Assembly (NCBI RefSeq): GCF_964194155.1
Contig: NC_135893.1
Coordinates: forward strand, 22,134,001 to 22,198,000
DNA: 64,000 nucleotides
Source of the DNA: Cetorhinus maximus
Lineage: Eukaryota
Direction: 5' to 3'
Shown here: piece by piece, positions 26,881 through 28,007 of the stretch
Layout of the letters: every line of letters begins with the position of its first letter
How positions within the stretch are numbered: the stretch's first letter is position 1
The notes under the pieces: generated by a model
The model's database searches: none
What the model was told of the DNA's origin: nothing
Seen by the model: only the letters and a program-made list of their open reading frames with translations
Made by a program: the position numbers and the translations under genes

Positions 26881-27051
26881 AAATGATTTAAATCTAGTTC
26901 CCGTGGATGAAGGATCCAGGCACCGGATTCACATCCTGGTGGGCCAACAAATGGTTGCAGGGTAGGAAGCATTTGTCACACACCTCACAGCAGACGGGCT
27001 TTTCCCTGCATGGATGCACCAGGGCTCCCACAGGGCACCTGATCCAATGAA

Positions 27052-27216
27052 ACCTTTTGGGTTTTAAGCTGGAGGTGTCAGAAAAGTTAGCACAGGGATA
27101 ACTGGCTTGTGGCGGCCAAGCATTCATAGCGATGTCGCTTTTTGATCCTTTGATGTCAGCTCTTTCTATCGTCATGAAGCAGAATTCACCAAGTGTTGGA
27201 TTGTTCACCCACTAAT
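27052..27216 (+). pseudogene. 28S rRNA fragment (domain V / peptidyl-transferase region), retroposed
   Basis: accttttgggttttaagc.ggaggtgtcagaaaagtta.cacagggataactggcttgtggcggccaag...ggattgttcacccactaat matches the conserved eukaryotic 28S sequence. Many differences are CpG>TpG/CpA. Confidence 0.95.
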
Positions 27217-27451
27217 CTTCACTCAGAGGGTGGTCAACCTGTGGAATTCTCTACCACAAAAGGCTGTGGAGGCTGGGTCATTGAGTATATTCAAGAAAAA
27301 TTGATATTTTTTTTGGATATTAGGGGGATCAAGGGGTATGGGGAGAGAGTGGGAGTCTGGCATTGTGATAGAGGATCAGCCATGATCATATTGAATGACG
27401 GAGCAGGCTCAAACGGCTGAATGGCTTACTTCTGCTCCTAGTTTCTATGTT
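27214..27451 (+). mobile_element. CR1-clade LINE 3' tail fused to the 28S fragment
   Basis: cttcactcagagggtggt..tggaattctctacc..gatcagccatgatcatattgaatg.cggagcaggctc..ctcctagtttctatgtt, homologous to the CR1 tails at 15000-15240(-) and 57950-58195. Confidence 0.9.
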
Positions 27452-28007
27452 AAACCCTTCCCACATGTCGGGCAATGGAGAGAAGCACTTCTCTGTGAAC
27501 ATGCTGGCAGCCAGTTCAGCAGTAGCGATGAATAATGGAATGTCTTGCCACATGTCCCAAGCCTGAAGGTCCACTTGCTGCTGTGGCTGGACTTTGATTA
27601 ACATTAAAAGTTGTAGCCTTGACCTTGGTCCATTTATTTTGAATTTAAGAATTGTTAGCACTTCCAGATGGAAAAAAAAACCATACAACTCCAAAAAAGT
27701 AACTAAACCACTAATTAGAGTATATTGTCTTTTATTTTACCAGCCAGGGACAACTGTAATTGTAATTGCAGAATACTAGATAAGAAAATCTTCAAAAAGC
27801 TAATACTTTGAGCAATCTACCATATCATTGTTCCCACATGATTGACACCTTCCTCAGTCATACCATACAATCACAGTTGCACTGGGAGTGCTGGAGCTGG
27901 CATGCATGTCTGACAATGACTGGATCACATTACACATTGCAGAGAGCATTGAATTACACTGCAGCAGGCAGGGTCAAATTACACACTCCAGACAAACTGT
28001 TGGGTGT

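Follow-up and report, generated by a model that had tools for sequence, protein, structure and literature searches.

We found that the 64-kb window (the whole stretch of shark DNA that was analysed, G000:C15:22134001-22198000) carries a decayed, single-copy chimera of 28S rRNA and a CR1-type LINE, which was probably made in one insertion by a CR1 reverse transcriptase (RT) that jumped onto broken 28S RNA. The features of the insertion and of its surroundings, in window coordinates, are as follows.

26897 to 27054, minus strand: downstream part of the host site, decayed and frameshifted C2H2-like fingers (translation, paralogue alignment)
27050 to 27054, plus strand: left TSD aaacc (sequence), its last three bases common to 28S (rDNA comparison)
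27052 to 27216, plus strand: 28S rRNA domain V fragment, L032 1501-1665 (Rfam, rDNA comparison)
27216, plus strand: single T that fits both head and tail (alignment with CR1 copies)
27217 to 27451, plus strand: putative 5'-truncated CR1-type LINE 3' end, with the end of ORF2, 3' UTR hairpin and octamer
27401 to 27437, plus strand: predicted 3' UTR hairpin within the LINE tail
27442 to 27449, plus strand: octamer tttctatg within the LINE tail
27452 to 27456, plus strand: right TSD aaacc, directly abutting the LINE end (junction shared with organism B)
27457 to 27500, minus strand: upstream part of the host site, the CPTCGKG half of the split finger (translation, paralogue alignment)
27607 to 28230, no strand assigned: conserved part of an old dispersed repeat with zinc-finger remnants (38 other matches, 71-83% identity)

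As the initial annotation had claimed, the head of the insertion is 165 nt of 28S rRNA domain V, which is 93.3% identical to the rDNA arrays of this genome (11 of 165 positions differ, or 6.7%, five of them at CpG) and takes up positions of about 2780-2944 in the RF02543 model; the single Rfam LSU rRNA match in the whole window is at 27053-27244. The last base of the head, 1665 in rDNA coordinates (L032), is the last unpaired base of a 5-nt linker and lies at a U|A site; the structure of the 28S ends was taken from Rfam, as folding of the rDNA alone told nothing (z -0.36). The hairpin preceding this linker is presumably the A-loop hairpin. The tail of about 235 nt in the same orientation was also borne out: a LINE 3' end of 235 nt in sense matches 29 genomic copies at up to 90.3% identity (range 82-90%) and differs from their majority at 17 of 234 positions (7.3%). 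Head and tail meet without extra bases and with an overlap of 0-1 nt, T27216 alone being common to both. The 'aat' microhomology that had been placed at 27214-27216 is out of register, because the two bases before T27216 are TT in 17 of the 29 CR1 copies, xA in five and AA in none. The aaacc direct repeat reported on either side of the unit is present; at the 5' junction, the ACC of its left copy (27052-27054) also fits 28S, giving a 3-nt overlap, and at the 3' junction the right copy comes directly after the LINE end.

The tail can provisionally be assigned to the 3' end of a CR1-type LINE by its RT-coding siblings, its hairpin and its octamer. An RVT_1 domain was found in all three of the longer sibling reading frames tested (E=1e-23 to 3e-11), and all 29 sibling copies reach at least 338 nt from the 3' end. 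A consensus hairpin, without compensatory pairs, was predicted in 10 sibling copies, and the octamer repeats at the 3' end of the tail among the sibling LINE copies. The motif at the end of ORF2 in the tail is, we assume, of vertebrate CR1 appearance. A 3' UTR hairpin and an octamer microsatellite are features of CR1 in the available part of a published description (PMC4316615).

Excision of the unit rejoins a C2H2 finger on the minus strand, CPTCGKG|FIGSGAL, with the pattern C-x2-C-x3-F-x5-L-x2-P-x3-H. The restoration of this finger, noted earlier from the letters, was thus recovered, but not as part of an intact gene: Pro has replaced one His of the rejoined finger, the finger motifs next to it are in a different frame, and the site belongs to a dispersed, decayed repeat. 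The fingers of the host site scored below the Pfam cut-off. The decayed C2H2 finger array spans 26110-27520 of the window (minus strand) and is attached to the unclassified dispersed repeat at 27607-28230, which has a sharp left edge at about 27607 and overlaps a very high-copy short repeat at 28006-28140. Elsewhere in the window, two open frames on the plus strand were recognized by eye, one of 315 aa (1239-2186) resembling a 7-transmembrane receptor of V1R/ORA type and one of 241 aa (34332-35057) resembling a RING-finger membrane protein.

The proposal that both parts arrived in one event is supported by the single TSD, by equal decay of the head and the tail (11/165 vs 17/234 differences; Fisher p=0.85) and by empty sites. 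Two of the 19 loci of the repeat family, L076 and L077, span the insertion site with one copy of the motif, with alignment scores of 50 and 46 vs a shuffle maximum of 24, and one other (L068/L089) has a deletion over the site. The expected single motif was therefore seen, but at paralogues; a true orthologous empty site was not seen, and L076 and L077 may represent another finger unit of the repeat. A 5-bp TSD by itself is weak evidence, because a repeat of at least 5 bp flanks 6 of 20 sibling CR1 copies and also 18.5% of controls scored in loose windows. What supports the TSD is that it sits flush, together with the spacing of the finger and the empty sites at the paralogues.

The insertion is likely older than the split between the source species (organism A) and a related organism B, as judged from assembled reads. 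Organism B contigs from three runs in three studies extend from 27419 or 27422 to 27926-27982, and two of them show 18 differences from the window in about 560 bases. The 3' junction is bridged in organism B by 33 bases in one contig and by 30 bases in two, the latter being one short of the bridging threshold of 31 bases; its presence there is what would place the insertion before the A/B split. The 5' junction was absent from the contigs of four runs, which is uninformative, as 26881-27075 is uncovered even in the source species. At window position 26880, organism B contigs from three studies and one organism A contig diverge from the window for up to 7.4 kb, and the window allele may be a polymorphic deletion; a rejoin point of these contigs was looked for and was not found.

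We examined whether the chimera belongs to a family of rRNA-headed, CR1-mobilised SINEs, as the initial annotation had suggested. A search of this genome for the junction had been set beforehand as the refuting test for a family; when it was run, only this locus matched. In the 4-Gb genome, the junction DNA search returned self alone as spanning the join among the 40 of 1535 candidates scored, and a 24-base junction pattern with at most 2 mismatches gave one match, this locus (control, 0). Per sibling, this pattern has a sensitivity of 0.77 when divergence is 7% and of 0.56 when it is 10%; three siblings that have diverged by 7% would all escape it with a probability of about 1% (0.23 cubed). 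Searching with the head DNA recovered self and rDNA arrays alone among 40 of 313 candidates scored. Dispersed 28S copies were sought with array-excluding patterns of partial sensitivity, one of which recovered self only and another three of three copies already known. A pattern for 28S copies that leave rDNA at the end base of the head gave five matches, namely self, L063, L064, L065 and L066; L066, which lacks a 28S match, is a chance match, and L063 and L065 were rejected as copies ending at 1665, their sequence reading through that site. The candidate L105 fits neither rDNA nor R2 and was dropped.

Using three CR1 references, no sense CR1 was found within 150 nt of the end in any of the 15 other dispersed 28S loci; at one of the 15, L101, an antisense CR1 adjoins the 28S piece at 72-74% identity. 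Rfam matches were found in none of 20 sibling CR1 loci (out of 29 siblings). The head shares at most one non-CpG change with any of the 11 other dispersed copies, and so carries no diagnostic changes of a master gene. It contains three T-runs (T4, T4 and T5) and no match to a Pol III A or B box (consensus as remembered). The layout of a head on a LINE tail with 3' hairpin and octamer kept is what a SINE member or founder would have, and MeloSINE demonstrates, in the part of its description available (PMC7245038), that a 28S-derived piece can occur in a SINE. Set against this, the unique junction, the lack of sense CR1 tails at the 15 loci, the Rfam result in the siblings, the missing boxes and the T-runs argue that there is no such family in this assembly, for which the proposal is largely refuted; we regard membership in or founding of a family as extremely improbable. 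The other branch of the earlier proposal, a one-off chimera, is supported, and with high confidence we regard the insertion as a one-off event. Since it has no Pol III boxes and no detected daughters, the chimera is likely functionless. No RNA dataset holding the sequence was listed, an outcome that bears neither way on expression.

Twelve dispersed copies of 28S, including the one described here, cover L032 1566-1598, and the few substitutions they have in common indicate that they are independent copies of rRNA. Of the ten copies without an R2 link, five have their 5' end at 1489-1493 (p at most 0.0009 by simulation), in a 10-nt unpaired linker, and the head at this locus starts 8-15 nt further in. 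A 3' end at 1665 is common to this head and L064, and a 3' end at 1870 to L070 and L065, together with L133, which came from a targeted search and has a 9-bp flanking repeat. Both positions are U|A sites, 1665 being unpaired and 1870 lying at a helix edge. Under a crude exponential length model, and for patterns noticed post hoc, a further copy would end exactly at 1665 with a chance of 0.03-0.055 (n=2), and two exact end pairs would occur among 12 copies with a chance of 0.004-0.03. In all, L070, L065, L096, L097, L098 and L133 are independent dispersed 28S copies with recurring 5' (1489-1493) and 3' (1870) ends. A young 28S copy of 694 nt (L095, 97.4%; G000:C16, about 9.615 Mb) stops close to the 3' terminus of 28S, and an A-run comes next.

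The copy L064/L069 (G000:C2, about 154.844 Mb, minus strand) consists of 28S 1232-1665 joined with zero overlap to 28S 994-1090, with CAAGG near both outer ends. Base 994 is the point at which, in many array units, 28S borders a non-rDNA element with A's at its end, and we take it to be the R2 site. L064/L069 is likely either a 28S fragment that entered the R2 site and was later retrocopied, or a copy of a circular RNA; on the simplest view, a second RT made use of the same free 28S end (1665) at L064. An R2-like element interrupts many rDNA units (L107 and L109-L128, on rDNA contigs; the eight array loci inspected are 99-100% alike) and is 5'-truncated in L111 and L113, and older dispersed pieces of R2 plus downstream 28S lie at the chromosomal loci L100, L101, L103, L104 and L106. 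The recurring ends of the dispersed copies suggest, in small numbers, that pre-cut rRNA fragments served as templates. Pre-cut RNA is not proven by these ends, since internal priming is a rival reading of them, the one that Noll et al., in the available part of their report, prefer to pre-cut RNA for fixed retrocopy ends (PMC5322556). More tentatively still, and as a reading that we hold to be doubtful, the germline of this animal might cut 28S at fixed single-stranded sites (5' ends at 1489-1493; 3' U|A ends at 1665 and 1870), the same end having been captured by two or more unrelated retrotransposon enzymes, CR1 here and R2 at L064. On that view, the dispersed retrocopies would record, like fossils, where rRNA was cleaved, and no complete 28S–CR1 chimera formed from such a fragment would have been known before this one.

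In the mechanism that we favour, CR1 ORF2 would have cut one strand of the defunct zinc-finger repeat and used its own 3' hairpin and octamer for priming; having copied about 235 nt, it would have switched end to end (0-1 nt overlap) to a free 28S 3' end at the unpaired U|A, copied 162-165 nt of 28S, and joined the 5' end through the 3-nt ACC overlap to leave the 5-bp duplication. An RT jump is consistent with the enclosure of both parts in one duplication at a site that L076 and L077 cross with a single motif, with the equal decay and the unique junction, with the stop of the head at an unpaired linker base, with the recurrence of that end base at L064/L069, and with the independent origin of the dispersed copies from rRNA. 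The R2 RT performs end-to-end jumping (PMC4117753), and the accessible parts of two reports provide precedents in human 28S/L1 chimeras (PMC13174262) and in U6 chimeras with L2 and RTE (PMC4476161). Against it, the TSD is modest evidence, the empty sites are paralogous, the 5' junction was missing from all four runs, and the end in common with L064 is one pair, with the chance estimate given above. Moreover, sequence does not tell an RT jump apart from earlier joining of the two RNAs, or from rDNA having been captured while the 5' end was repaired.

A rather unlikely alternative is that a 28S fragment was ligated to broken CR1 RNA beforehand (RtcB-type, 2',3'-cyclic phosphate to 5'-OH), the chimeric RNA then being reverse transcribed in one insertion. 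The sense orientation and the 0-1 nt overlap without extra bases fit this route as well as the RT jump, and an end at an unpaired U|A is, in the part of the source available, a signature of rRNA fragments with a cyclic phosphate (PMC8053083). RtcB makes U6/L1 RNAs, and the available text of that study allows the route for cleaved RNAs (PMC6789731); RTCB also religates rRNA breaks, according to the portion available of a preprint (bioRxiv 10.64898/2026.05.26.727988). However, U|A is a common dinucleotide, and at L064 this end meets the R2 site directly, LINE RNA being absent from the join, so that a free template end suffices and ligation is unneeded. Less probable again is a DNA-level or two-step origin, in which repair of the 5' end of CR1 brought in a copy of rDNA or two insertions came successively at one spot. 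Chance gives a sense orientation with a probability of 50%, end-joining would be expected to leave an overlap such as the 3 nt found at the 5' junction, L101 shows that CR1 can adjoin a dispersed 28S piece, and the head is absent from the organism B contigs, though the filter makes this absence uninformative. Yet the internal junction shows no second duplication, head and tail are equally old, and the end base of the head recurs in another copy. We rank the RT jump above prior ligation and above a DNA-level or two-step origin.

The insertion itself matters little, being a dead single copy and an ordinary by-product. It adds a partner of CR1 type to those of rRNA/LINE chimeras, and it displays the raw step that gives SINE heads their LINE tails. 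If the recurring fragment ends hold up when the whole genome is screened, they would tie the cleavage or repair of rRNA to retrotransposition in germlines outside mammals, in a way that is open to test.

Judged by its layout, with sense 28S directly 5' of a truncated LINE end within one TSD, the insertion is a member of the known class of RNA/LINE chimeric retrocopies. Its head presumably lies at about 4320-4480 in the numbering of Law and Burns. In the available part of their report, 18 human 28S/L1 chimeras (83% sense) have recurring ends, with starts at 3635-3637 in 5 of 18 and ends at 4011 twice and at 4115/4116 (PMC13174262). Like these, the shark chimera is a single-copy insertion of an internal 28S fragment (50-482 nt there, 165 here), in sense and 5' of a truncated LINE with one TSD; unlike them, it is joined to a LINE of CR1 type rather than to L1, and its TSD is short. 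By our assumed mapping, none of the ends of the 18 described there falls within 4320-4480, the nearest being 4495, which is antisense. As far as its description was available, SINE28 (Longo et al., PMC4994717) is likewise a dispersed 28S-derived retrocopy with a TSD, but its source is the 3' end of 28S and its tail is A-rich, whereas the present head comes from inside 28S, carries a LINE tail, and falls about 460 nt short of the point, close to the 3' end of 28S, where L095 stops; L095 is nearer the SINE28 pattern than this insertion is. Tailless retropseudogenes end at defined single-stranded positions, in the accessible part of Noll et al. (PMC5322556), a description that L133, L070 and L065 fit, but unlike this insertion they have no LINE tail. 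An RNA-derived head on a LINE-derived tail is also found in MeloSINE, which combines the 28S 3' end with RTE parts (AviRTE partner; PMC7245038), and in the shark HE1/HER1 V-SINE, in which the head of HE1 is a tRNA (PMC3747384); as described in the parts available, these are multi-copy families of uniform structure, and the present insertion is single-copy. A literature search of incomplete coverage found no 28S–CR1 chimera and no rRNA-headed SINE of sharks. The U6/LINE chimeras, which were reported with L2 and RTE and with platypus TSDs of 1-9 bp (Doucet et al., PMC4476161) and for which RtcB ligation was described with L1 (Moldovan et al., PMC6789731), resemble the shark insertion, in the portions of these papers available, in having an RNA head on a stringent-type LINE tail, a short TSD and no family, and differ from it in that the head here is an rRNA fragment and not U6. 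In the accessible text of PMC4476161, the lone CR1 case (turkey) has a sequence gap, whereas the shark chimera is complete at both ends.
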